This document shows, piece by piece, positions 3,893 to 43,636 of a stretch of 64,000 nucleotides of DNA. The translations under genes were made by a program, and so were the position numbers. The stretch spans positions 64,001-128,000 of the forward strand of contig CBDBZU010000004.1 in assembly GCA_965213625.1 (NCBI GenBank). Direction: 5' to 3'. Source of the DNA: a bacterium (lineage in GTDB: Bacteria > UBA8248). A model generated the notes under the pieces. It saw only the letters and a list, made by a program, of their open reading frames with translations. It did not search any database and was not told where the DNA came from. Position 1 is the stretch's first letter; every line of letters begins with the position of its first letter.

Positions 3893-4411
3893 ATGCAGTC
3901 CTTTGCACGAAACGAGCCAGTGAAAAAACGGGGCGTTCGATCCTCTTCCCCGGTAGTCCCGACGACAGGAACGCCGGGAACGACCGCCAGATGTCCAGTA
4001 TACACTATCAATATGGGGTTGGTGTGAAGATTCGGGATGATGACTATGATAACATAATCATCGTGGAGAGATATGCCAAATTTTCAAGTGGCACACGAAC
4101 CTTCAGCGGCAAGGAATTCAGGTCGACCTCTCTGTCGCTCGAGGCTCTGCAAGCTCGCTTACGATCTTTCAGGCGACGTTCCTCGTACAAGTCACATCCG
4201 AAACCCGAATAGAAAGAGAATCTGCCTGCATACACGAAATGTTCGAGAGGAGGAAACGCTGCCCTGAATGGCCAAAACCCGCGCCTCCCCTCAAATAAGC
4301 CTCATTTTCACGGTACCGGGCCCCTGCAGCCGGGCACCGCCCTTGGACCCGATAACGTTCGTTCGATCATTAGGGGCGATCTTTCATTCTGCATCAAAGA
4401 CTGAAGAAGTG

Positions 4412-5332
4412 ATGCGAAAGGAAATGGAATTCACCGACTTCAAGCGCCACTACTTGGGCGAGTTTCCGAACAAAGATGCGCCGGCGCAGGACGTTTTACG
4501 TTATGGACGCGTAAAGCTGGAATCAGGAGCCACCCAGGCCCATGGCCACACGCAAGGGGCTTGGAGTTTTTCGTTCACGCCGAGCGGTGATAGGATTGAA
4601 AGATTCACACCGCCCTTGGTGAGTAAACGCCTCATGAACAAATGGTTGCGTCGTCCGGGAGCTCCGCACACGATTCCCTTGAATCCCGAGGAAATGAATG
4701 AAGTCTGCTCTGTCCTGGCGGGAGAGTTCGACGAACCCGATGAGGTTTTCATGAATTTCATGGTGCGCCTCCCCGGCTGGGCGAGACTCGAGTTCGAAAA
4801 CGTCGACAGATTGTTCGGGGAATTGACGAGGGGCCATGCGCCCCTGCTTGACTTCGTTAAAATGTGCCGGGTGCGGGTATATGACGATCGGCGAACCTTG
4901 GAGATTGCCTATCGCCGCCTTTGGCTGCTCGACAGCGTTCGAATACGTGCGGACGCTGAAGAGGAGGAGTGGCGTTTTCGTGCGATTGAGGCGGCGTCCC
5001 GGGTTCTCGAGAGCCGCGGGGAGCGTGTCCAGGCTTGCCGTTTCATAGTCTTGCTCCAGGGGTTCCTGTGGCTGGCGTTTCAGGCGTTTTCGGGTGCATC
5101 GCTAGTGTATCTGTGGAACATCGGGCGGACGGATACGAATCTCCTATGGGCGGGCGCCGCGGCCTTCTCGCTGTCTGCTGCCACGTTCGCGCCCGGCCTT
5201 TTGAAGCGGATGTTTCCCCAGGATACGGAAGTAGAGGCGAGAAGCCCACTGCGCCTGTTTCTGGGTGTGGTTTCTATGCTTTCGAGTATCGTTGCGGCTG
5301 TAGCGGTGATACTCGGCCTCGCCGGCATATGA
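4412..5332 (+). CDS. Hypothetical protein with about 3 C-terminal TM helices
   Basis: Long ORF (4268-5332) with probable start MRKEMEF and a hydrophobic C-terminus. No family recognised. Confidence 0.55.
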   Translation: MRKEMEFTDFKRHYLGEFPNKDAPAQDVLRYGRVKLESGATQAHGHTQGAWSFSFTPSGDRIERFTPPLVSKRLMNKWLRRPGAPHTIPLNPEEMNEVCSVLAGEFDEPDEVFMNFMVRLPGWARLEFENVDRLFGELTRGHAPLLDFVKMCRVRVYDDRRTLEIAYRRLWLLDSVRIRADAEEEEWRFRAIEAASRVLESRGERVQACRFIVLLQGFLWLAFQAFSGASLVYLWNIGRTDTNLLWAGAAAFSLSAATFAPGLLKRMFPQDTEVEARSPLRLFLGVVSMLSSIVAAVAVILGLAGI

Positions 5333-5365
5333 GCGCATGGCGTCGTTTATTCGGTAAACTTGAAA

Positions 5366-6003
5366 ATGACCACCGGGACGAGGGGAGCTAGAAACGCCCA
5401 AAGGAAGTTCGGTGACCTCCCAGTACCTTTGGGTCTGTCTCTGCTCGGCAACCTTCACCAGATTCGTTTTGCGAGGATGCACTGCATACTCGAGAGATGG
5501 GCGGATCGATACGGGCCGATCTATTGCATATCGCTGGGCAGGCGAAATTACGCGGTGGTCTCGGAACCGGACGCCATAGCCCATATACTGGGGAAGCGGC
5601 CCCACGGCTTCCGGCGCGAGAAGTCGAGCACCTGAGACGGTGCTGGGAACGCGCGGCCGATCATGGAGAGGCGATAGACCCCTACCGTGACCTCATGCGC
5701 TTCACCGCCCGTGTCACTATGCAATTCGTCTTCAGCGTCGACCTCGGCGCGCCCGAAAGTCCCGGCGCATCCATCCGTCACCATCTCGCCGCCATATTCC
5801 CGGTGTTGCACCGCCGTCTGAATCTGCCCTTACCCTTTTGGAGGTGCTTCCGGCTGCCTTCGGATCGAGCGCTCGAACGCGCTCTTGCCGGACTGAAAGC
5901 CGAGGTTCGCGACATGATCCGCACTGCTAAGGAACGAATGGAAGAAAACCCGCGGCGCAGCGTTACGCCTGGGAATTTCATCGAAGCCTCAATCGCCGCC
6001 AGA
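5366..6003 (+). pseudogene. Cytochrome P450 fragment (internal deletion/frameshift, C-terminus lost)
   Basis: LPVPLGLSLLGNLHQI...WADRYGPIY...VVSEPDAI...RPHGFRR, a frame change near 5630, then DLMRFTARVT...PFWRCFRLPSDRALERAL. No ExxR or heme-Cys motif. Confidence 0.8.
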
Positions 6004-6172
6004 GGATGTGCACGAGCGCCTCTCCTTCACCATGGCACCCGAGAAACTTATCGTACGCATAAGGCGCAGACAAGGCGCTTCATCCGGTTCGAATTCATCC
6101 CTAATCCCTCGCCGTGCCCAGGGCTACCACGCGGACGGTCGCGATGCCCGGAGGTGAAGATTATCTTCACGC

Positions 6173-6187
6173 TTTTTCAACAGCCCC
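6173..6187. repeat. Orphan IS/MITE-like terminal motif TTTTTCAACAGCCCC
   Basis: Reverse complement of GGGGCTGTTGAAAAA at 19108. It sits where group II intron B is truncated. Confidence 0.55.
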
Positions 6188-7235
6188 GTCAGTGCCTGCC
6201 AACAAACGCCGGCACATTCCATACTTATCCGATAGCACCGGGAAAAGAAGCGTTCGGGAGCTTCAGCTTCCCTCTTAGGAGAGCGTCGTTATCGTTTGTC
6301 GGGTAGGGCACTGGCGCGCGCACCTTTAGGCGGAGGGTTTCCAGCCCTGCCCTTTCGGTTCCAGGGTGGGGTCACAGTTCCGCCTTGAGCCACGTTTCCA
6401 GCCGCCCCCCCTAAAATTCCGTACGTCGAGTTTTCCTCGGTACGGCTTCCAGCAACAGGCACCTCCCAGTTTGGAGTGGAGTATTCCGCGGGAACACCGG
6501 GGTTTAAGACCGACCCTGCCATACCCCTCGGCGGGTCCAACGTTTACTCCGCCCTCAGGCTTCACCATGTGCAGAGCGCTTTCCCCCGCCTCTGTGTGCG
6601 GGCTGCCCGCCACGGTGTCGCCACCTGTGCCCAGAGGTCCTCGCTCCGGGTGGGTTGTGTTCTCCCACCCTTCATCGCTTGGCGACCTCGTCCGCCAGTC
6701 TGGAGGTCTCCGTCTCACTTCCCGGCGCCCCGGTTATAAAGACGGTCTTCGACATTCACAGGGTCATCCTGTCATGACCTCCACACCTTCCGGACTTTCA
6801 CTGCGCTACTTTCGAGTATTGCCGCCTTCAATACGCCGGGAGCCCCGGTTCGTGCGCCTCAGTTTCTTCTGCACCGGCACTGGCCATCGGTTAGGAGGGA
6901 GACCCTTGGCAACTCCATCTACCCCGCAAATCAGCTTCACGCGGGAAGTCCTTGTTTCGACGCTTCATCCGTTCACTTTCGTTACGGTCCTACTCGTTGC
7001 TTGCCTGCCGGGCTGATCGCACACGAGCGGCACGGCGGCCCCTCTGTACCCCGAGGCTTTTACGTCCGGGCTTCCAGAGCGCCGGGTCGCCCCGTACGTC
7101 TGCTGGATATGACTACGGCGCCAAACTGAGAATTGCGCCGGCGGGACTTTCACCCGCTAGTACCGCAGTTAGTCTCGCTGCACCCCTCCCGCAGGACTTT
7201 CACCAGCTGCACTGACACCAGTTAGCCTGGCGCAC
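6188..7235 (-). mobile_element. Group II intron B: 5' domain-I fragment (7235-7184 plus 6297-~6188), interrupted by intron A and truncated
   Basis: Minus strand begins GTGCGCCAGGCTAACTGGTGTCAGTGCAGCTGGTGAAAGTCCTGCGGGAGGG, a canonical GUGCG start. No DV/DVI belonging to it is found. Confidence 0.7.
6298..7183 (-). mobile_element. Group II intron A, ORF-less, 886 nt, apparently full-length ribozyme
   Basis: 5' GTGCAGCGAG. DV GAAGCCGTACCGAGGAAAACTCGACGTACGGAATT (about 6415-6449, AGC triad). DVI ends CCCTACCCGAC. EBS1 loop CCCUCC (6894-6899) is complementary to the 5' exon GGAGGG. Confidence 0.88.
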
Positions 7236-7562
7236 ACCCCATCGCTTGGTCGGGTAGGAGGGGGCATTGCTGCGCCCCTCCCCCCACAGACCCGAGCGTG
7301 CGCGATTGACACACTCGGTTCCTCACCTGACAGGTTCGCTCAAGGGGTTGTCACCCTTGCTCCGCAGGTCGAGGCATTCCTCGCCTGTTTGGCTATCCAC
7401 TGCTGTTTCGTGTACGTGTTGGTGGAACTCAGAGTTTCCTCCAGCGTTTCCCATCAGTGGCTCTGTACAGATGACGCCCCGCTTCCCTCCAGTGGGTCCC
7501 GGTGGCCACGGTTCCCCGCCTTCAGCGGTACTATCAGGGCGCTACGACTTCCTGCCCTTCTC

Positions 7563-7867
7563 TAATCGGGACGAGCAAGTCAAGTTCCTCTGCCCTGTTT
7601 TTTCCAGCTCTGTTCCGCCTTTGGTTTTAGACGATACTCCATGGGGGTCTCGCTTCTCTACGTGATCGGCACCCGGTCCGGGGCCGTCAACAGGATGGGA
7701 TCGGAGAACGAGGTGGAACAATCTCGCATACGTCCTCGCACCGTCACCGACGGAGCGGAACGGGGCAGGAAGCGAACTCACCTCGTCCCTCGTCCCCACG
7801 GGAGCATCCTCCGCCAGATCGGAAGCTGCCGTAGTATTCGGATTCTTCTCCTCTTGGATTCCCAAGG
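7563..7867 (-). ncRNA. Putative bridge RNA / seekRNA of the IS110 element (exact ends unknown)
   Basis: Four ordered guide-like segments: 7763-7772 (target left flank), 7722-7729 (target right flank), 7694-7701 (donor left), 7655-7660 (donor right). Strand polarity alternates as in bridge RNAs. Confidence 0.75.
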
Positions 7868-8908
7868 TCAGGCGGCTACGTCATCCACGCCGTCGCGTTT
7901 CCAGCGGAACTCGCTGCCATCCATCCATATGCGGTGCATGATGACGCCGAGCCGGCGGGCAAGCGCAACCTTCGCGCGCGCCTTGCCGCGACGCTTCGCC
8001 ACACCCATCGCCCAGGCTTTCAGCCATGACCACCGCGTCGTGCGCCCGAGCAAGGCGTTGGCGGCTTCGTAGAGCGCCGCGCGCATCATCGCGTCGCCGC
8101 ACTTGGAGATTCTTCCCGTTCGGTCGACCTCTCCGGATTGCCATTTGCGAGGCGCAAGCCCGAAGTGCGCGCCCACCGAGCGCGAACGAGCAAAACGCGA
8201 TGGCACGTCGACGCTCGCCCGGAAGGTGAGCGCCGTCACCGGACCCACGCCGGGGACCGTCATCAGGCGACGGCAGACCGGGTCGACGCGCACCGCCTCC
8301 AGCATCATCCTGTGCAGCCGGACGTATTCCGCCAGCAACGCCGCTCGCGCCCGCAGCATCGGCTTCACCAGGCCCGCCAGCGCCGGGCGCTCCGCGACCA
8401 GTCCAAGCACCCGCGCCTCCAGCCCGCGGCGGGTGACCTTGCCCATCTTCAGCCCGAAGTTGCGCAGCGTGCCCCGGATGTTGGCCTCGGCGTCGCACAA
8501 CTGCTTCAGCATGAACCTGCGGTTGGCGAGGAGCATTCGTTTCTCCTGGCTCGACACCGTCTTCACGTGCACCGGGCGAATCAGGTTCGCGCGAACCAGC
8601 TGGGCGATCCCGCGCGCGTCGTCACGGTCGCTCTTGTTCACCGTCGCAGATAGTATGGCCTTCAACTGCCGCGTCTCGGCGCAAACCACCGGGAGCCCGG
8701 CCTCGGCCAGGCCGTCATGGAGCCACTGCGACAGCGGCCCCGCCTCAAGACAGATGCGCGTCACGCCGAAGTCCAGCCCGGTGAAGAACGCCGCGAGGGC
8801 CGCGGGTTCGCTCGCGACCTTCGCCTCCCGGACGATCCCGCCGTCCACGTCCACCACGCACACGCTCGTCCACTCCAACGACACGTCGAGTCCTGCAAAG
8901 TAGTTCAT
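7868..8908 (-). CDS. IS110-family DEDD recombinase/transposase, intact
   Basis: MNYFAGLDVS, CLEAG, KSDRDDA (DEDD), VPGVGPVTA, FGLAPRKWQSG (catalytic Ser), GRISKCGD. AGGAG RBS. Confidence 0.95.
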   Translation of the reverse strand: MNYFAGLDVSLEWTSVCVVDVDGGIVREAKVASEPAALAAFFTGLDFGVTRICLEAGPLSQWLHDGLAEAGLPVVCAETRQLKAILSATVNKSDRDDARGIAQLVRANLIRPVHVKTVSSQEKRMLLANRRFMLKQLCDAEANIRGTLRNFGLKMGKVTRRGLEARVLGLVAERPALAGLVKPMLRARAALLAEYVRLHRMMLEAVRVDPVCRRLMTVPGVGPVTALTFRASVDVPSRFARSRSVGAHFGLAPRKWQSGEVDRTGRISKCGDAMMRAALYEAANALLGRTTRWSWLKAWAMGVAKRRGKARAKVALARRLGVIMHRIWMDGSEFRWKRDGVDDVAA

Positions 8909-9634
8909 GACTGCTCCTCCTGCGGGCGCGTAGAGACCGGACCATCCCGGCCTCGCCTCGATCATATGACAGAGGAACATCCCCTACACGCGGTAGTTCG
9001 AGGGCCGACCCGATTATCCCATCTCGCATCTCCTTCGGCTTATTGTTTTCACCAGCCGGTTCCGCGGGCGCCTGCCGGGTTCGTGTCCGCCATGGGGCGC
9101 TCCCGCCGCCGTGCAAGCCCGGCGACGGACCGGGGTCTGGATTTTCATGCTGGCCGTCCCCTTTCCAGCGTTCTTGCCCACGGGCAAGAGCAGGATCTCC
9201 CAGGTTCCCTGGCGACCCATCCCCGTAACTTTGCGCCGGTCCACGACCCCGGACGACCCGTTGCGCCTCGCCGATAGCGGCGCTTCCGGTGCTGCCCCCA
9301 CACGATTAACAATGAAGGCGTCGTCGATTCACCGATTTCGAGGCTTACCCCACCGCTTCGTCACCTGCTGTCTACGCTTCACGACGCACGTTGCCGCACG
9401 CCATGCAAGACTCGCTTCCGGCTGGCTGGCTTCGCCTTTGCCGGGCGGGAGTCGAACCCGCTGGGTCGCTACGAGAGGTTTCAGGTCATGGCGTCCTCCT
9501 CTCCAGGGCTTAGCCTGGCGCAATAAACGTTCGGCGACAGGGTGATGGCGCCGGGTTTACTCATTCCGGACTTAAGCAAAAGGTTCTTGTTGAGGGGCTG
9601 GTAACATCATCCGGCATGTGGTAATCATGTCGGC

Positions 9635-11982
9635 ATGAAGATTTGCACGGAAGGTGTCGAGACGAAGCCGGCGTTGGTCGAGAGGCCGAATGAGCCATGG
9701 CCTCATTCCCCTGATTTGTCCACAACCGCAGAGGCGTACTGGCGTTCGCAGTACGAGCGCGAGCGTGCGCGCGCGGAGGCGGCGGAGGCGCGCTGCGAGG
9801 AGTTGCGGTGGGCGGAAGTGGATTCGCGCGCCCGTGCGGGTAGGCTGAAGCGGCAGTTCGACGTCTGCCGGAAGAAGCTCGAGGAGGCCGCCGGTGAGGC
9901 GAAGGAAGCCCGCCGCGCGGCGAAGGACGCGCTGTCGCTCAAGACGGAAGTGGAGCGGCTGGAGAAGCTGCTTGCGGAAGCAGGGGTCGAGCCGCGCAAG
10001 CGCAGCCCGCTCATGTCGCTGCGCATGGAGGTCGTCCGGCTTCGCAAGGAGCTCTCGGGCGTGCCGTCGCCGGGGGAGGCGGGGCGGGTGCGCAAGGCCC
10101 TGGAGGAGCGCAGGGAGACGATTCATGCCCTGCGCAAGGAGGTCGGCCGGCGGGAGAAGGAGGTCGCCCGGCTGGAGGAGCGACTGGACCGGGAGAAGCA
10201 GAAGTCGGCGGCTCACAAAGAGACCATCCGGGGCCTGGACGAGGAGGCCATCGGGCTCTACAGGAAGTTGCGGCGATTGCGCGACCAGGCGGAGGTGGTC
10301 GAGTCGTTGTCCGCGGAGGTTTACCGTCTTAAAGTCTCCCTGGGAGCCGCAGGCATCGCGACCGAACGACTGAAGGCGCGGTTGTTGCGCGCAATGGAGG
10401 CGGCGCGCTCGAGGTCGCCGTCCCGTGCGGACGAGGAACTGCGCAAGGCCCTGGGGAGGTCGCGGCGCCAGAAGACGGCGCTCGGGTCCCTGTCCAGGGA
10501 GAATGCGCGGCTTCGCCGGGCGCTACGCAAGTCAGAGACCCGCCGGGCGCGTCTGGAAGCCGAGCTCGCGAAGCTTCGCGCCACGGGAGTGGTGCTGGCG
10601 AAGAGGCTGTTCGGGCGCAAGAGCGAGCGGCAGGAGAAGCCGCGCTCGGAGCGCAGGCGCGGCGGGCAGCCCGGCGCCCGGGGCCATGGCCGCACCCCTC
10701 GTCCCGCGCTCGAGGAGAGGACGGAAGTTCGCAACCCGCCGCCCGCGTCTGCGCCTGTTGCGGGCAGCCCTACGTGGCCAACGGCGCGCGTGTATCGAGC
10801 CTCGTCGAGATCGAGGTCTCGGCCCACAAGCGCGTCATCCGCCGTCCGCGGTGGCGCCGGGGGTGCGGTTGCGCGTCGTCTCCCATGGAGGTGTCGGCGC
10901 CGCCCGCGCCGCGCCTGTTCGCGGGCACGTCCTTCGGGACGAGCGTATGGGCGCGCTTCCTGTTCGAGCGCTACGCCTGCTTCCGCCCGCTGCGCCGGGT
11001 TGCCGCGTGGCTCTCCGACCAGGGGCTTACCGTCTCGGCGGGGACGCTGGGTGACAGCGCGCACCGCTTCACGCCCCTGTTCGAGCCGCTGGCCGGGGCG
11101 ATCCTCGCCCGCCAGAACGAGTCTACGCTGCGCCACGGGGACGAGACGACCTGGCGGATACAGTCGCTTCGCGAGCAGGGGCGATCGAGCCGCGCCTGGC
11201 TGTGGACATCGGTAAGCACGGACTCCGTCTACTTCCACGTCGACCCCTCGCGGGGCGCCGGGGTCGCGATGAAGCTGTTCGGCGCGGCCGGCCGCCATAC
11301 GGTCCTCGTCTGCGACCGCTACAGCGCCTACAAGAAGCTGGCGCGCGAACTCGACGGCGCCGTAATCCTATCCTTCTGTTGGAGCCACCAAAGAAGAACC
11401 TTTATCGACAGCGCGGCCGGCGAGGCGCGCCTGACGCCGTGGTGCGAGAGATGGATCGGGCGGATCGCCTTGCTCTACCGCCTGAACGAGGCGCGCCTGG
11501 CCCGTTACGACTCAGGTCTCGAACACCAGGACGCGGCGTTCGACGCGGCGCACGACGAATTGAAGAAGGCGCTCGAGGGCCTGTTCGCGCAGGCCCGACG
11601 CGAACTGGCCGCCCTGTCGGCGCAGGCGCCCGAGGGCAAGGCGCTTCGCTCGCTGCTGAACCACCGCGAGGGGCTGAGCGTCTTCCTCGAGCGCCCCTGG
11701 GTGCCGACAGATAATAACGCCATTGAGAGAGTGCTCAGGGGTCCCGTGATCGGGAGGCGGCTCTCGTTCGGCTCCGACAGCGAGGCCGGCACCGGGTTCA
11801 CGGCGATGATGTACTCCGTCCTCGGAACGCTCTCATCGAACGGCATCGACCCGCTCCGCTGGCTCGATGCATGGCTCACCGCCTGCGCGCAGAACGGCGG
11901 CCGGGCGCCCGGGGACCTCTCCGCATGGCTGCCCTGGTCGATGAATGCGGAGCGCAGGCGCGCCCTCACGGCGCCGGGATGA
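9635..11982 (+). pseudogene. IS66 TnpC transposase with long N-terminal coiled coil, frameshifted near 10740
   Basis: LFGRKSE and GQPGARGHGR, then in the second frame CACCGQPY zinc finger, HGDETTW, LVCDRYSAY, CWSHQRR, DNNAIERVLR. Confidence 0.9.
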
Positions 11983-11986
11983 CGCC

Positions 11987-12859
11987 GTGATCGAGTGCCG
12001 CTACTACGGACGCGACTTCACGACTGATGAGATGACGCTGCTGCGCGCGCTGATCACCGGCCCTCCCGCGCTCAATCGCAACGTGCTCTCCAAGGAGTTC
12101 TGCCGGCGCATCGGCTGGTTCAAGCCCGACGGCGGACTCAAGGACATGATGGCCCGGGTGACCATGCTCGCCATGCACAGAGACGGCCTGATCACGCTTC
12201 CCCCGCCGAAGCGCCCGCGGCACCCGGCCCGGCCGATCGTCTTCGGGCCAGACACCGAAGCGCCTCTCATCCCGGCGCCCGAGACCCTCGACGAGGTCCG
12301 TCCCCTCGGGATGCGCATCGTCGTGCGTGGAACCCGCGAGGGAAGGCTCTGGAACGAGTTCGTCGCCCGCTACCACTACCTCGGCTACAAGACCCTCGTC
12401 GGCGCCCAGATGCGCTACGCCGTACACGACCGCGACGGCAGGCCCCTCGCCATGCTCGGCTTCTCCACCGCCGCGTGGAAGCTCGCCCCGCGCGATGCCT
12501 TCATCGGCTGGACGCCCAGGCTGCGCGAGAAGAACCTTCCCCTCGTGGTCGACAACCCGAGGTTCCTCATCCTGCCATAGATCAAAATCCCCAACCTCGG
12601 CTCGCATCTCCTCGCCATCCTTCGCAGGCGACTGCCCGACGACTGGACCGAGCGCTATGGCACGACCCCCGTCCTCATCGAGACCTTCGTCGAGACGCCA
12701 CGCTACACCGGCGCCGTCTACAGGGCTTCAGGATGGATTCACGTCGGAACCACACAGGGACGCGGACGCTACGACAGGTACAAACGCCACGACAAACCCA
12801 AAAAGGATGTCTGGCTACGTCCCCTCCGCAACAACTGGAAGAAAGTCCTCAACCGCTGA
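11987..12859 (+). pseudogene. DUF4338 (DruA-like) protein with in-frame TAG at 12578-12580
   Basis: YYGRDFT...CRRIGW...LWNEFVARYHYLGY...RDAFIGW...NPRFLILP*IKIPNLGS...W.ERYG..PVLIETFVE...GAVYRASGWIHVGTTQGRGRYD. The TAG replaces an expected Trp. Confidence 0.85.
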
Positions 12860-13292
12860 AACAACTCCCATCACCCTGTCGCCGAACGGTTACCTACCCG
12901 GCCCCCGACAGGCGCACCCTTGGATACGCAGGCGTTGTAACGAATCCGCTTGCGGTTTGATTACGGGTTATGGAGGGTGGATCTCGGAGACTCGGTAAAA
13001 GAAAATGATATCAATATGTTAGATGGATATGTGTCCAATCGAAACTAGTGGATGCACCTGATTTCTCGAAAAACCCCGTGAATTTGTCTAATTTTATCGA
13101 TATTTCCAGATATTATTATTTGCATATTTCATGATCTGCGCCTGGACGAATCGCTCACCCGCCTCCATCGGTCCGCGCCCGCTCCATCTCCTGAAAAACC
13201 AATGGCCGACGGACGGCCTTCTCAGCATACCCCATCGCCCCGAAAATCCCGCCACGGCAAATGCGGGTCGAACCCGACCGAGGAGGTCAGTT

Positions 13293-13406
13293 CCGACCGA
13301 GAAGGGAGGAACTGACCGACTGAGAAGGGAGGAACTGACCGACCGGGGAGGGAGGAACTGACCGACTGAGAAGGGAGGAACTGACCGACCGGGGAGGGAG
13401 GAACTG
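13293..13406. repeat. 23-bp tandem repeat, about 5 copies
   Basis: Units G(A/G)G(A/G)AGGGAGGAACTGACCGAC(T/C) at 13299, 13322, 13345, 13368 and 13391 (partial). Confidence 0.92.
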
Positions 13407-13760
13407 CTTCGCCGGCCGACCGGGCAGGTCAATCGTGGCTGGGGAAGGAGCGGTTGTTGTTTGCGCGCACCGACCCAAACGATCGGCCCTTCCAACTTAC
13501 AGGCGCTCCCCTCCTCTCCCTTCACCGCGAATGCCCTCCCCGGTTCCAGGCCGGACCACCCACTCCATACGCATGAAACGTGGCGGCGCTCTCCGGTGAA
13601 GCCGCATCAAACGCCCCACCAGATACGATTTTGTCTCACCGAGGCGTTATGTTAGATTCATTCCATCATCTGGATTTAAAAGTTCGGCGAAAGTAATTCC
13701 GGGAGAAGACGAACTTCACGTCACCGCGCAGAAGCAGGCGGTGGAAACCCGAGGTTTCAC

Positions 13761-14663
13761 GTGGACCGAACCGACGCCCAAAAATCCCTCGACGCCCAGG
13801 ACGTGAAACGCATCGCCCGCGAGTTGGGCGCAGACCTCGCAGGCGTCGCATCGGCGGAGGATTTCGCGGAAGCCGCTCCCGGCTGCCGACCCAGAGACTT
13901 GTTCAACATGGCGAACAGCGTCGTCGTCATCGCCAAACGCATCCCCTTCGCCGCGGCCACGCCCTATCCCAGCATCGGCGCGATGGAATTCGGCGAATAC
14001 ATCCCGGAAAATTTCCTGAACGAAGCCTGCTACCGCCTCTCGCTTCATCTCGAAGACGCGGGCTATCTCTCGGGCGCCACGCCATGCGGGCGCGACATCA
14101 CGAGCTTCCGCGTGGAAGAAGAAGACCCCGAGCCCAGGGTTTTCCTCCAGGGTTCCTTCGATTTGCGGCTCGCGGCGGTCAAGGCCGGCCTCGGGCATAT
14201 CGGAGCCAACAACTGCCTCATCACGCCCAAGTACGGCTCCCGCGTCCGCCTGGGCGCGGTGCTCACCGAGGCGCGCCTCGCGCCTGACCCGCCCAACCAG
14301 TACGGCGTTGTTCCTGAGTTCTGCCGTGAATGTGGCTTTCGCTGCGTGGAGGCCTGCCCCGCGAACGCGCTCCCGGGCGACGGCACGGTCGATCACTACC
14401 GCTGCATGGTCATCCGGCCGGATCTGGTCGCGCCCGAAAAAGCCCTCACCCATTTCAAAAAACTGTTCCGGGGCAAGCCCCTCATCATGGCGGCCAAAGG
14501 CCTCTCCTACACTGACAGCCCGCCGCATGCCTGCAGCACCTGCATCGCCCTGTGCCCGATGGATCAGGGCCGCGATTTCGCAGATACGCCTTTTCACCGT
14601 GAATCCTGGTCCGATGAAGACGCGCGCAAGGTCATCGACCCGGCATTACTGGAGAATCCCTAG
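13761..14663 (+). CDS. QueG/reductive-dehalogenase-like 2x[4Fe-4S] protein, copy 1
   Basis: ARELGADLAGVA, AAVKAGLGHIG, TPKYGSRVRLGAVLT, CRECGFRCVEACP, CSTCIALCP. Confidence 0.85.
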   Translation: MDRTDAQKSLDAQDVKRIARELGADLAGVASAEDFAEAAPGCRPRDLFNMANSVVVIAKRIPFAAATPYPSIGAMEFGEYIPENFLNEACYRLSLHLEDAGYLSGATPCGRDITSFRVEEEDPEPRVFLQGSFDLRLAAVKAGLGHIGANNCLITPKYGSRVRLGAVLTEARLAPDPPNQYGVVPEFCRECGFRCVEACPANALPGDGTVDHYRCMVIRPDLVAPEKALTHFKKLFRGKPLIMAAKGLSYTDSPPHACSTCIALCPMDQGRDFADTPFHRESWSDEDARKVIDPALLENP

Positions 14664-14664
14664 C

Positions 14665-15510
14665 ATGGAAAACGGCCACGGAACCGGGATTTCCTCCGCC
14701 GACGTCAAGGCGCAGGCCCGTGAGTTCGGCGCGGACCTGGTGGGAATCTCATCGTGTGCGGGTTACGGAAAAGCGCTGCCCGGCTGCAAGCCCGAAGACC
14801 TCGTAAAGGACGCCAGGAGCGTCGTCGTCTTCGCGCGCCGCATGCCCTTCGGCAACGCCACCTCCCGGCCTACGGTGGGTTATCTGGAATTCGGCTATTA
14901 CGGGCACGAGGCATGGATCAACAAGCTCTCATACCGCCTCGCGCTCTGGTTGGAGGATCAAGGACAGATGGCGCTGCCCACCCCCGCCGGGCGGGACATC
15001 CCCTCGCTCCGCATCCTGAGCGAAGGCGCGGAGCCCGAGGTCTTCATGCAAGGCTCCTTCGACTTGAGGCTCGCTGCGGTGAACGCAGGCATGGGCGAAA
15101 TCGGCGTGAACAACAACCTCATCACCGCCGAATACGGCTCGCGCCTGAGACTCGGAGCGGTCATCACGACGGCGGCGCTCGAACCCGACCCGCCCAGGCA
15201 ATACGGCGTGGTGCCCGATTTCTGCGTGGAGTGCGGGTACAAGTGCATCAAGCCCTGTCCTGCGGGCGCCCTCCCCGGAGACGGCGCTGTGGACCACTAC
15301 AAGTGCATGGTGATGTATCCCCAAAAAGTCTCGCCGGAAAAAGCCGTCGACGTCTTCAAGAAACGCTACGGCTACCCCGAACTCCAGCTCGCCGGGCGCA
15401 TGATGGCCTTCACCGAGAACGCGCCGCACATCTGCGCGACCTGCATCACCCTGTGCCCGATGGACGAAGCGCGCCGCGTCAAAGAGAAGGCGAACGGCGG
15501 CGGGGACTGA
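14665..15510 (+). CDS. QueG/reductive-dehalogenase-like 2x[4Fe-4S] protein, copy 2
   Basis: AREFGADLVGIS, AAVNAGMGEIG, EYGSRLRLGAVIT, CVECGYKCIKPCP, CATCITLCP. Start ATG is 1 nt after the copy 1 stop. Confidence 0.85.
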   Translation: MENGHGTGISSADVKAQAREFGADLVGISSCAGYGKALPGCKPEDLVKDARSVVVFARRMPFGNATSRPTVGYLEFGYYGHEAWINKLSYRLALWLEDQGQMALPTPAGRDIPSLRILSEGAEPEVFMQGSFDLRLAAVNAGMGEIGVNNNLITAEYGSRLRLGAVITTAALEPDPPRQYGVVPDFCVECGYKCIKPCPAGALPGDGAVDHYKCMVMYPQKVSPEKAVDVFKKRYGYPELQLAGRMMAFTENAPHICATCITLCPMDEARRVKEKANGGGD

Positions 15511-43275: not shown

Positions 43276-43636
43276 TGGTGGAGGCGGCGGGAATCGAACC
43301 CGCGTCCGCAAGGCTTCCGTCGTGAGCGTCTACGCGCGTAGCCGGTGGAAAGGGTTTCGCCCGGTCTCAAGCCCACCGGCGGGCCATCCTCCGGGCTAGT
43401 CCGATTAGATTTCGCCTAGCAGGCTCCGGACCGAAACCTGGGTCGGCTAGTCCGCATCATGACGTTCCGCACCTCCCCCGCGGACGAGGCGAGGGGGAAC
43501 GCTCGCTAGCGTTTAAGCAGCGAGAGCCAGCTCGTTGTCGGCTGGTGTGATTTTGCCACATTGATAACGGGGCCAAGTGGCGTCCCCGGCGCGCAGCTCA
43601 GACTTCAAATCCTCCCGTCGAAGCCAGATCGCCCCC
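43276..43636 (-). ncRNA. ssrA: tmRNA, tag peptide probably (A)ADNELALAA
   Basis: 5' GGGGGCG pairs with CGCCTCC-ACCA (G3:U). T-arm GCGGGTTCGATTCCCGC. Tag ORF at 43542-43513 ends GCT GCT TAA. Near smpB. Confidence 0.96.

Follow-up and report, generated by a model that had tools for sequence, protein, structure and literature searches.

The 64,000-nucleotide (nt) window examined here, positions 64001-128000 of a 4.13-Mb contig (CBDBZU010000004.1) in the 4.15-Mb, 59% G+C genome of a UBA8248 bacterium, holds a stack of five mobile elements. We read the stack, with a probability of about 85%, as genuine, built up step by step as site-specific mobile elements nested within one another in an intergenic region rich in repeats. 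Followed along the minus strand from 9523 to 6298 and along the plus strand from 9524 to 12893, it is made up of a decayed IS66-family insertion sequence (IS), a group II intron (C) lodged in the tip of its left inverted repeat, an IS110-family element inside that intron, a 52-nt stub of another group II intron (B), and a third intron (A) joined to the stub; the probable scar of a sixth element comes after the five. The four inserted elements (A, B, C, and IS110) all lie on the minus strand, and the surrounding DNA is decayed and rich in repeats. The boundaries, empty sites, guide/target identities, covariation in exon-binding sequence 1 (EBS1), and gene lesions described below are direct observations, and the stack is beyond chance because independent copies reproduce every one of its boundaries.

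Much of this layout had been proposed in a sequence-only reading of the window. Its coordinates for five nested or adjacent elements hold almost to the base, as do the shared minus-strand orientation of the introns and IS110 and the spacing of exactly 13 nt (7236-7248) between introns B and C. The left limit it gave the stack, 6173, was misplaced: intron A ends at 6298, and 6173-6297 lies outside the stack.

Intron C in the tip of an IS66 repeat

The outermost layer is the IS66-family element, which occupies 9524-12893 on the plus strand plus base 7248 and was delimited from Pfam DDE_Tnp_IS66 and DruA matches and by comparison with a second copy in the same genome (copy 2, C4:510397-513732, 86% identical). 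Copy 2 retains an intact 781-codon transposase frame, which scores 262 bits against NF033517, and an intact 349-codon DruA-like frame. In the window a 7-bp deletion at 10743/10744 breaks the transposase into two frames, 9635-10743 and 10774-11982; copy 2 and a contig of run X1 both retain the missing CGGTGCG. The DDE_Tnp_IS66 match (1.7e-52) lies in the frame 10774-11982, and the DruA-like open reading frame (ORF) at 11945-12580 (Pfam DruA, 8e-19) is halted by TAG at 12578-12580, where copy 2 reads TGG. The decay by frameshift and nonsense codon that had been suggested from the window alone is thus borne out. Canonical IS66 elements carry accessory tnpA/tnpB genes. Neither gene lies within the repeats of copy 2 (L080, own C4:510200-514000) or of the window element (9635-12580), and the gene content, one transposase of 781 codons whose N-terminus is a long coiled coil and a DruA/DUF4338-like ORF of 349 codons, resembles that of the single-ORF IS66 subgroups.

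The right repeat, CCATCACCCTGTCGCCGAACGGTTAC (...CCGAACGGTTAC), is intact at 12868-12893, whereas intron C interrupts the left repeat (9524-9548 plus base 7248) a single base short of the tip. Rebuilt across intron C, the left repeat reads GTAAACGTTCGGCGACAGGGTGATGG and the right GTAACCGTTCGGCGACAGGGTGATGG; 25 of 26 positions are identical, the left repeat being the inverted right repeat with one base different. Terminal inverted repeats of the IS66 family typically begin GTAA, as these do. The family typically also makes an 8-bp target duplication; here there is none, the flanks reading CATCGCTT and, past a 10-nt scar, CCCCGACA, and the flanks of copy 2 are likewise unlike each other. An IS66-derived miniature element in the relative G026 has CCGACAGG on both sides. 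The same motif belongs to a module of about 70 bp (...CCGACAGG...AACGAATCCGCTTGCGGTTTGATTAC) that follows IS66-type right repeats at five places in the own genome (window 12903-12964 and C4:513.74k, 219.70k, 211.64k, and 3547.99k) and in G026; it occurs reversed at own 316.88k and 1922.21k, before a B intron and an A fragment. These elements may prefer the module as a target, or the module may belong to them.

Intron C spans 9523->7249, carries no ORF, and is split after nt 502 by IS110. Its 5' segment (nt 1-502, starting UUGCGCCAGGCUAAG) lies at 9022-9523 and its 3' segment (nt 503-809 when IS110 is left out, a remnant of the reverse transcriptase (RT) region plus putative domains 5 and 6, D5/D6) at 7249-7555, both on the minus strand. 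The 5' segment was recognised from a full-length copy of the intron and from Rfam RF02005 (group-II-D1D4-6), which matches over the whole model at 9237-9454 on the minus strand (132 bits, cut-off 49). The putative D5/D6 region runs 7323->7249, where RF00029 matches over the full model at 7249-7323 with 32.4 bits, under its cut-off of 40 (E 2.4e-4 to 2.5e-3), and the element ends ...CCUACCCGAC. Comparison with uninterrupted repeats set both ends of C. Its exons rejoin as GTTTA|CAAGCG, where copy 2 reads GGTTACAAGCG, which puts the intron one base from the tip of the IS66 left inverted repeat, flanked by its GTTTA and its final C; the outermost base of the repeat, 7248, is the first base of the 3' exon. 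That C sits inside the IS66 end, as had been proposed, is confirmed, and the empty end is found uninterrupted both in copy 2 and in the related genome contig G016:C23.

Insertion at the tip of an IS66 repeat is a habit of the C lineage. The 5' exon was read for eight C copies, six in the own genome and two in relatives, and seven of them follow ...CCGAA/CTGAA nnGTTA of an IS66-type repeat; the eighth (own 694k) has only the final TTA in common. The host repeats belong to full IS66 elements or to 110-150-bp miniature elements composed of two such repeats. All eight copies begin UUGCG rather than GUGYG, including the full-length copy with its open RT frame, and the 12 nt after UUGCG match those of intron B, GUGCGCCAGGCUAA. 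The unusual start is a lineage variant, not decay.

The full-length relative of C (C4:3545930-3547984) contains a 449-codon open frame, the genome's sole RVT_1 match at E<=1e-5, which scores 355 bits against the group II RT/maturase model TIGR04416 (cut-off 300). The window copy is 95.7% identical to it over 9022-9548 (C4:3545930-3546457), 96.7% over 7379-7558, and 90.7% over 7248-7344, and lacks about 1.25 kb of the RT region through a deletion between 7379 and 7344. Window C is an ORF-less derivative because this region is deleted relative to the full-length copy. The same deletion form, about 840 bp and free of IS110, is present in two other genomes (G013:C2:1593034-1593874 and G026:C1:2638969-2639813), and C therefore probably reached its site already without an ORF. 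A candidate EBS1 loop of C, GUUAAUCG, lies at 9310->9303 on the minus strand; EBS1 candidates picked by eye for B and C showed no covariation, and we make no claim for them. A minimum-free-energy fold of the 809-nt intron placed nt 502 in a long helix within an implausible architecture, and a domain III/IV claim was dropped.

The opposite end of the IS66-family element may record a second event of this kind. The 10-nt stretch CCTACCCGGC (12893-12902, plus strand) directly follows GGTTA of the right repeat, which is the C insertion point, and agrees at every base with the 3' terminus of C-type introns; the 3' exon beyond it is of the same kind as at own C4:211632. It is the probable scar of a second C-type intron, almost wholly lost, whether 5'-truncated on arrival or deleted later.

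An IS1111-type element inside intron C

The element within intron C is 1466 bp long (7556-9021, minus strand) and was identified from transposase profiles, an empty site, and relatives. Its transposase ORF runs 8908->7868 on the minus strand, with an upstream ATG at 8980 (frame 7868-8980), and is of the DEDD type: it scores 227.6 bits against NF033542 of NCBIfam (cut-off 140) and matches Pfam DEDD_Tnp_IS110 (PF01548) and Transposase_20 (PF02371). Twelve full-length relatives from other genomes (90-95% nucleotide identity) align only from 9024-9031 down to 7554-7557, their similarity ceasing within 10 nt of the element ends. In the full-length own-genome copy of C (C4:3545930-3547984) the empty site is GATGCGAGA^GCAGGAAGTCG; around the window element, GATGCGAGA closes the left flank and GCAGGAAGTCG opens the right one, with nothing duplicated or lost. 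Further C copies free of IS110 occur in G016 (two places), G002, G012 (two), G018, G011, G013, and G026, and in seven of these loci in relatives the IS110 site itself was read. The proposed placement of IS110 inside intron C is thereby fixed by an uninterrupted C in the same genome and by the 12 relatives, and the C copies without IS110 agree with its boundaries.

In the IS1111 group the inverted repeats are subterminal and 7-17 bp long, the right end exceeds the left in length, and the right end holds a bridge RNA whose two guides pair with opposite strands (PMC11208160). The window element has 8-bp subterminal inverted repeats, TAATCGGG (9016->9009) and CCCGATTA (7570->7563), 5 and 7 nt from its ends, together with a 113-nt left end and a 312-nt right end, and we assign it to the IS1111 group because of these features. 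A bridge RNA is predicted at about 7790->7600 on the minus strand. It would comprise a right-target guide, CUUCCUGCC (block read CTTCCTGCC), at 7772->7764, a left-target guide, AUGCGAGA (block read ATGCGAGA), at 7729->7722, and a donor-guide-like segment, UAGAGAAG, equal to the right end, at 7660->7653, all on the minus strand.

The guides were found by aligning the right ends of 13 elements, which reveals two short variable blocks within conserved sequence. In the window, the left guide ATGCGAGA recurs unchanged as the final 8 nt of the left flank (8/8). The right guide CTTCCTGCC is perfectly complementary to a 9-nt stretch made up of the terminal base of the element and the 8 nt that open the right flank (9/9). 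The target within intron C reads ATGCGAGA^GCAGGAAG. The closest relatives, L001 and L002 (95% nucleotide identity), carry different guides, ATGAGAGA and CTGTCGGCT, at a different target, ATGAGAGA^GCCGACAG; their left flanks read ACGAGAGA or ATGAGAGA and their right flanks A+GCCGACAG, matching at 7-8/8 and 9/9. Across the 13 elements the left guide matches 8/8 in eight, 7/8 in three, and <=4/8 in two (L004, L005); the right guide matches in register 9/9 in three (window, L001, L002) and <=4/9 in the other 10. The poor right-guide cases sit mostly in one REP-like repeat, which has only CCGAC in common with the guide, one base out of register. In the consensus fold the guides flank a hairpin, in the manner of a target-binding loop. 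We consider the guide assignment strongly supported by these alignments for the window element and L001/L002, and the bridge RNA would be made from the right end.

Might IS110 instead have entered C by loose or half-matched targeting of ...AGA^G, the guide match being secondary or coincidental? A 2026 preprint reports half-match off-target insertion by bridge recombinases, and 10 of the 13 copies here occupy sites that fit only the left guide well, with two fitting neither. Nonetheless, we find this very unlikely. Matches of 8/8 plus 9/9 at fixed RNA positions are far beyond chance, and the window guides differ from those of the 95%-identical L001/L002 exactly where the targets differ. For the window element, targeting by both guides remains our reading.

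The exact crossover or core dinucleotide was sought, and no register gave a duplicated core. The last base of IS110 (window 7556) varies between G, A, and C among the right ends of L001-L015, even at the same REP-like target; in the window, L001, and L002 it is complementary to the base after the right-target guide. This complementarity may bear on the position of the crossover.

The IS110 lineage is not dedicated to introns. Sixteen related loci, each taken with up to 2.5 kb of flank, gave no Rfam match at gathering score, group II introns included, and among the IS110 copies listed in relatives none reaches more than 10 nt into C; close relatives in other genomes sit in the REP-like repeat. 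At the left-guide site the own-genome C reads ATGCGAGA, and seven C copies in relatives read ATGCAAGG, AAGCAAGG, or ATGCGGGG (target ATGCAAGG^GCAGGAAG), so the left guide fits only the own-genome variant. By DNA blast IS110 is single-copy in the genome, and a 25-nt pattern across the left junction of the composite C::IS110 had 0 exact matches in metagenome_contigs. The IS110 site lies about 100 nt before the remnant of C's protein-coding region, a position that might be tolerable for an ORF-less intron. One could imagine that the bridge RNA was retargeted onto the own-genome C variant and that C::IS110 still splices and retrohomes by means of the intact C-type RT, in which case a DNA transposon would spread by riding on an RNA retroelement as its cargo, reaching the tips of IS66 repeats; we give this scenario a slim chance at best.

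A second perfect 16-nt guide target, unoccupied, lies in full-length C (own C4:3546450-3546465, L077). A different REP-like repeat from that targeted by the IS110 relatives, about 50 bp long, occurs in the window at 13061-13114 and in more than 30 copies in the genome, which also holds five more IS110-family transposase genes of other lineages (C4:4131975, 927684, 522545, 1823177, and 2211979).

Introns B and A beside the IS66 end

Between the 3' end of C and intron B lies the 13-nt spacer CAAGCGATGGGGT (7236-7248), of which 7236-7247, AAGCGATGGGGT on the minus strand, is the conserved 5' exon of B-type introns. Only the first 52 nt of B remain (GUGCGCCAGGCUAAC...GGGAGGG; 7184-7235, minus strand), beginning GTGCG at 7235 and recognised by homology to RT-bearing introns. 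With its 12-nt exon the stub is 90.6% identical to own C4:316952-317015, where B continues into the start of an RT/maturase (64 bits, first 84 model positions). The same 52 nt open a B-type intron in G016:C12 with a 506-codon RT/maturase frame (L074; TIGR04416, 358 bits).

At nt 52/53 the window switches from B to GTGCAGCG, the beginning of intron A at 7183. Intron A is an ORF-less, 886-nt element (6298-7183, minus strand; 5' GUGCAGCG, 3' ...CCCUACCCGAC) that ends ...CCCTACCCGAC at 6298 and was recognised from homologues and a near-cut-off Rfam match. RF02003 reaches 46.5 bits at 6977-7159, just under its cut-off of 49. An 83% homologue with the same ends is present at G026:C1:3970079-3970912, and 885-nt copies occur in the metagenome contigs L085 and L089. 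The 3' end of A includes a 57-nt stretch missing in G026; an assignment of 6360->6298 to domain VI of B was dropped, as the G026 and G005 copies show that it is the 3' end of A. A D5-like hairpin found by eye at 6447->6416 is conserved in G026, own 1922k, and G005. A- and B-type introns (window 6416-6447; L063, L072, L079) have such a hairpin in common, with base AGCC...GGAA and AA opposite the AG of the catalytic triad, and RF00029 gives no match to it.

Pairing between A and its exon can be read directly. EBS1 of A, CCCUCCU at 6899->6893, pairs over 7 bp with the GGGAGGG that ends the 5' exon. The G026 copy, which sits about 337 nt into a B-type intron, has CCUUUCU at the homologous place, pairing over 7 bp with GGAAAGG by two compensatory changes. 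Candidates for EBS2 and for intron-binding sequence 2 (IBS2) of A, chosen by eye, showed no covariation and are not claimed.

That A entered B at this point is supported by empty sites and by recurrence. B runs unbroken across nt 52/53 at own 317k, L068, L073, L074, and L072, copies in the own genome and relatives that agree with the boundary, and the order B then A that had been proposed follows from the interruption and these empty sites. Among five distinct metagenome contexts of A, three are nt 52 of B and two are non-B sites; the search pattern contained GGGAGGG, and that motif was thus forced in the matches. A is not B-specific. The reciprocal junction is found at own C4:1922442, where the final 172 nt of A run straight into AGAAGGCCAGCCACC, the sequence of B beginning at nt 53. 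For the locus in the window, the claim that A lies inside B is supported on the 5' side of A alone. Sensitive blastn of 6330->5950 against seven B-type sequences, the longest of which covers only about the first 1.9 kb of B, returned nothing but the tail of A (best E otherwise 0.33), and a genome-wide blast of 4000-15000 found no other piece of B. Farther along, 5497-6066 is a P450-like remnant (Pfam p450, E 0.0015, under cut-off), 76-82% identical to part of contig C3.

These flanks leave room for a different history, in which the B stub and A were not built here and were brought beside IS66 by recombination between A copies or with IS66. The absence of B from A's 3' flank is as such recombination would leave it, the reciprocal junction (A 3' end, then B from nt 53) adjoins the same 70-bp module that flanks IS66, and A is known from non-B sites. 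Furthermore, IS66 left repeat, AAGCGATGGGGT, and B are adjacent without C in the same-genus genome G016 (contig C23); at copy 2 the corresponding sequence is AAGCGATGGGAT, with neither B nor C. Because repeat, AAGCGATGGGGT, and B recur together without C, either of B and IS66 may have come first. On the other side, the A/B joint at nt 52/53 is a recurrent homing site, found in three further B variants among metagenome contigs, and B must for that reason have been entered by A somewhere; nothing shows that this happened elsewhere. Assembly of the pair by recombination is a tangible possibility for this part of the stack, though on the doubtful side, and insertion of A into B in place is the account we carry forward. 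In another part of the window, a tmRNA gene lies at 43276-43636 on the minus strand (RF00023, 172.6 bits).

History, precedents, and meaning

We propose the following history. The IS66-family element would have adjoined AAGCGATGGGGT, the homing site of B-type group II introns. ORF-less C would then have retrohomed into the IS66 left repeat at its outermost position, the joint of GTT(T)A with C; the C lineage uses this repeat-tip site at either repeat and in IS66-derived miniature elements. The protein would have been supplied in trans by the genome's only intact intron RT, that of full-length C (C4:3546560-3547906). An IS1111-type IS110 would next have integrated after nt 502 of C, guided by its own bridge RNA. 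Separately, a B-type intron would have been invaded after nt 52 by ORF-less A, with EBS1 CCCUCCU finding the purine run GGGAGGG. The rest of B may have been lost later, possibly by deletion or by recombination between dispersed A copies, the latter of which would give loss at A's 3' end, and the IS66 genes decayed. The order IS66, C, IS110 offered by the sequence-only reading follows from which element interrupts which and from the empty-site copies. Its further claim, that each arrival used base-pairing guides against a conserved part of the previous element, holds for IS110 (8/8 and 9/9) and A (7 bp) as far as pairing goes and is only a candidate for C; "conserved" does not suit the IS110 left guide, which fits a variant confined to the own-genome C.

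A number of observations pull the other way. For IS110, the right guide matches in register in only three of 13 elements, and the left guide falls to <=4/8 in L004 and L005. The non-cognate control is weak (cognate mean 11.2/17 against 9.2/17), as ...AGA is common to every flank. When the right end is folded as a consensus, compensatory changes occur in only 2 of 71 pairs, and no Rfam family matches that end. Intron C begins UUGCG instead of GUGYG, and its candidate EBS1 pairing is weakened by the GTTTA of the window's left repeat, where intact repeats have GGTTA, and shows no covariation in L069. No RF00029 match was found in A at E<=10, and B is lost exactly at A's 3' end. As to the assembly, no read crosses the whole 6.7 kb, and the contig covering IS110 extends 29 nt beyond each IS110 end, where 31 nt beyond a joint was needed for a run contig to count as bridging.

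Those last points could be taken to mean that the stack is an assembly chimera of collapsed or mis-joined repeated introns and insertion sequences. By genome-wide blast, every component except IS110 is repeated in the genome, and short-read contigs stop at every repeat edge, with none covering the stretch. The runs that contain the stretch are labelled mostly as sponge, some as coral-reef and viral metagenomes, and X19-X21, three runs of one study, may come from the genome's own source sample. Their contigs match 7527-9050 and 5800-6337 with 0 differences, crossing the junction of A with its flank, and one X19 contig spans 6922-7309 with 4 differences and passes over three joints, A/B, B/spacer, and spacer/C; run X1 shows a joint 6187->7251 that was set aside because only 21 nt lie on one side of it. 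A mis-join would not yield IS110 guides that fit the intron flanks at 17/17, and this match is independent biological support for both IS110 joints. The joints also coincide exactly with canonical element ends, and the host contig is 4.13 Mb long. We find a chimera barely credible, and retain stepwise nested insertion.

Each layer of nesting has published precedent, and the stack is a clean new example with no new mechanism. In Thermosynechococcus elongatus, ORF-less introns derive from a single ORF deletion and are mobilised by a relative's protein, some introns have come to target a conserved site within an insertion sequence or, forming twintrons, within another intron, and one intron is itself interrupted by an IS, TeI4g::ISEL2f (Mohr, Ghanem & Lambowitz 2010, PMC2882425). 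The window repeats all of these arrangements: ORF-less introns, an intron in an IS, a twintron, and an IS in an intron. It differs in that the IS within the intron is an RNA-guided IS110/IS1111 element with guides that match the intron. The entry point of the inner intron differs too, lying in domain I (nt 52) and not at the start of the ORF, and the outer intron is a 52-nt stub. In Methanosarcina acetivorans as many as five introns lie within one another, the exons contain no host gene, and the arrangement has been interpreted as a perpetual homing site (Zimmerly & Semper 2015, PMC4424553). Repeated site-specific homing of introns into introns is common to both; M. acetivorans stacks introns only, whereas here a DDE IS66, retrohoming introns, and a DEDD bridge recombinase are layered. 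The suggestion that the locus is a safe-harbour sink for mobile DNA is a fair description, and the idea is already in print for nested introns.

Homing to insertion sequences is also familiar. ISRm2011-2 is the host insertion sequence of the group II intron RmInt1. The natural homing site of RmInt1 in Sinorhizobium meliloti lies in an insertion sequence (PMC4238363, PMC3035460), as does that of C; the C-type introns differ in targeting the tip of an inverted repeat, 1 nt from its end, in IS66-type elements and their miniatures and at either end. Likewise, IS1111-group elements target the terminal repeats of the Tn21 family (IS4321/IS5075), attC sites, and REP sequences (Durrant et al. 2024, PMC11208160; PMC12288879). 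Our element is like them in its subterminal repeats, its long right end with a (here predicted) bridge RNA, the lack of a target duplication, and a preference for repeated or mobile sequences, its close relatives sitting in a REP-like repeat; it is unlike them in having the inside of a group II intron as its target. Our searches, which covered open-access text only, brought up neither an IS110-family element lodged in a group II intron nor a lineage of introns specialised on the tips of IS66 repeats.

Overall, the stack layers three unrelated transposition chemistries, a DDE transposase, target-primed retrohoming, and a bridge-RNA recombinase, and two of its layers still show, right beside the insertion site, the guide by which that site was chosen. 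It provides a ready natural target/guide pair for an IS1111-type bridge recombinase, with a 95%-identical relative bearing another guide pair as a built-in specificity control. Group II introns here serve as landing pads for RNA-guided insertion sequences, which extends the idea that mobile elements pile up in each other since the conserved sequences of parasites are safe, repeated targets.

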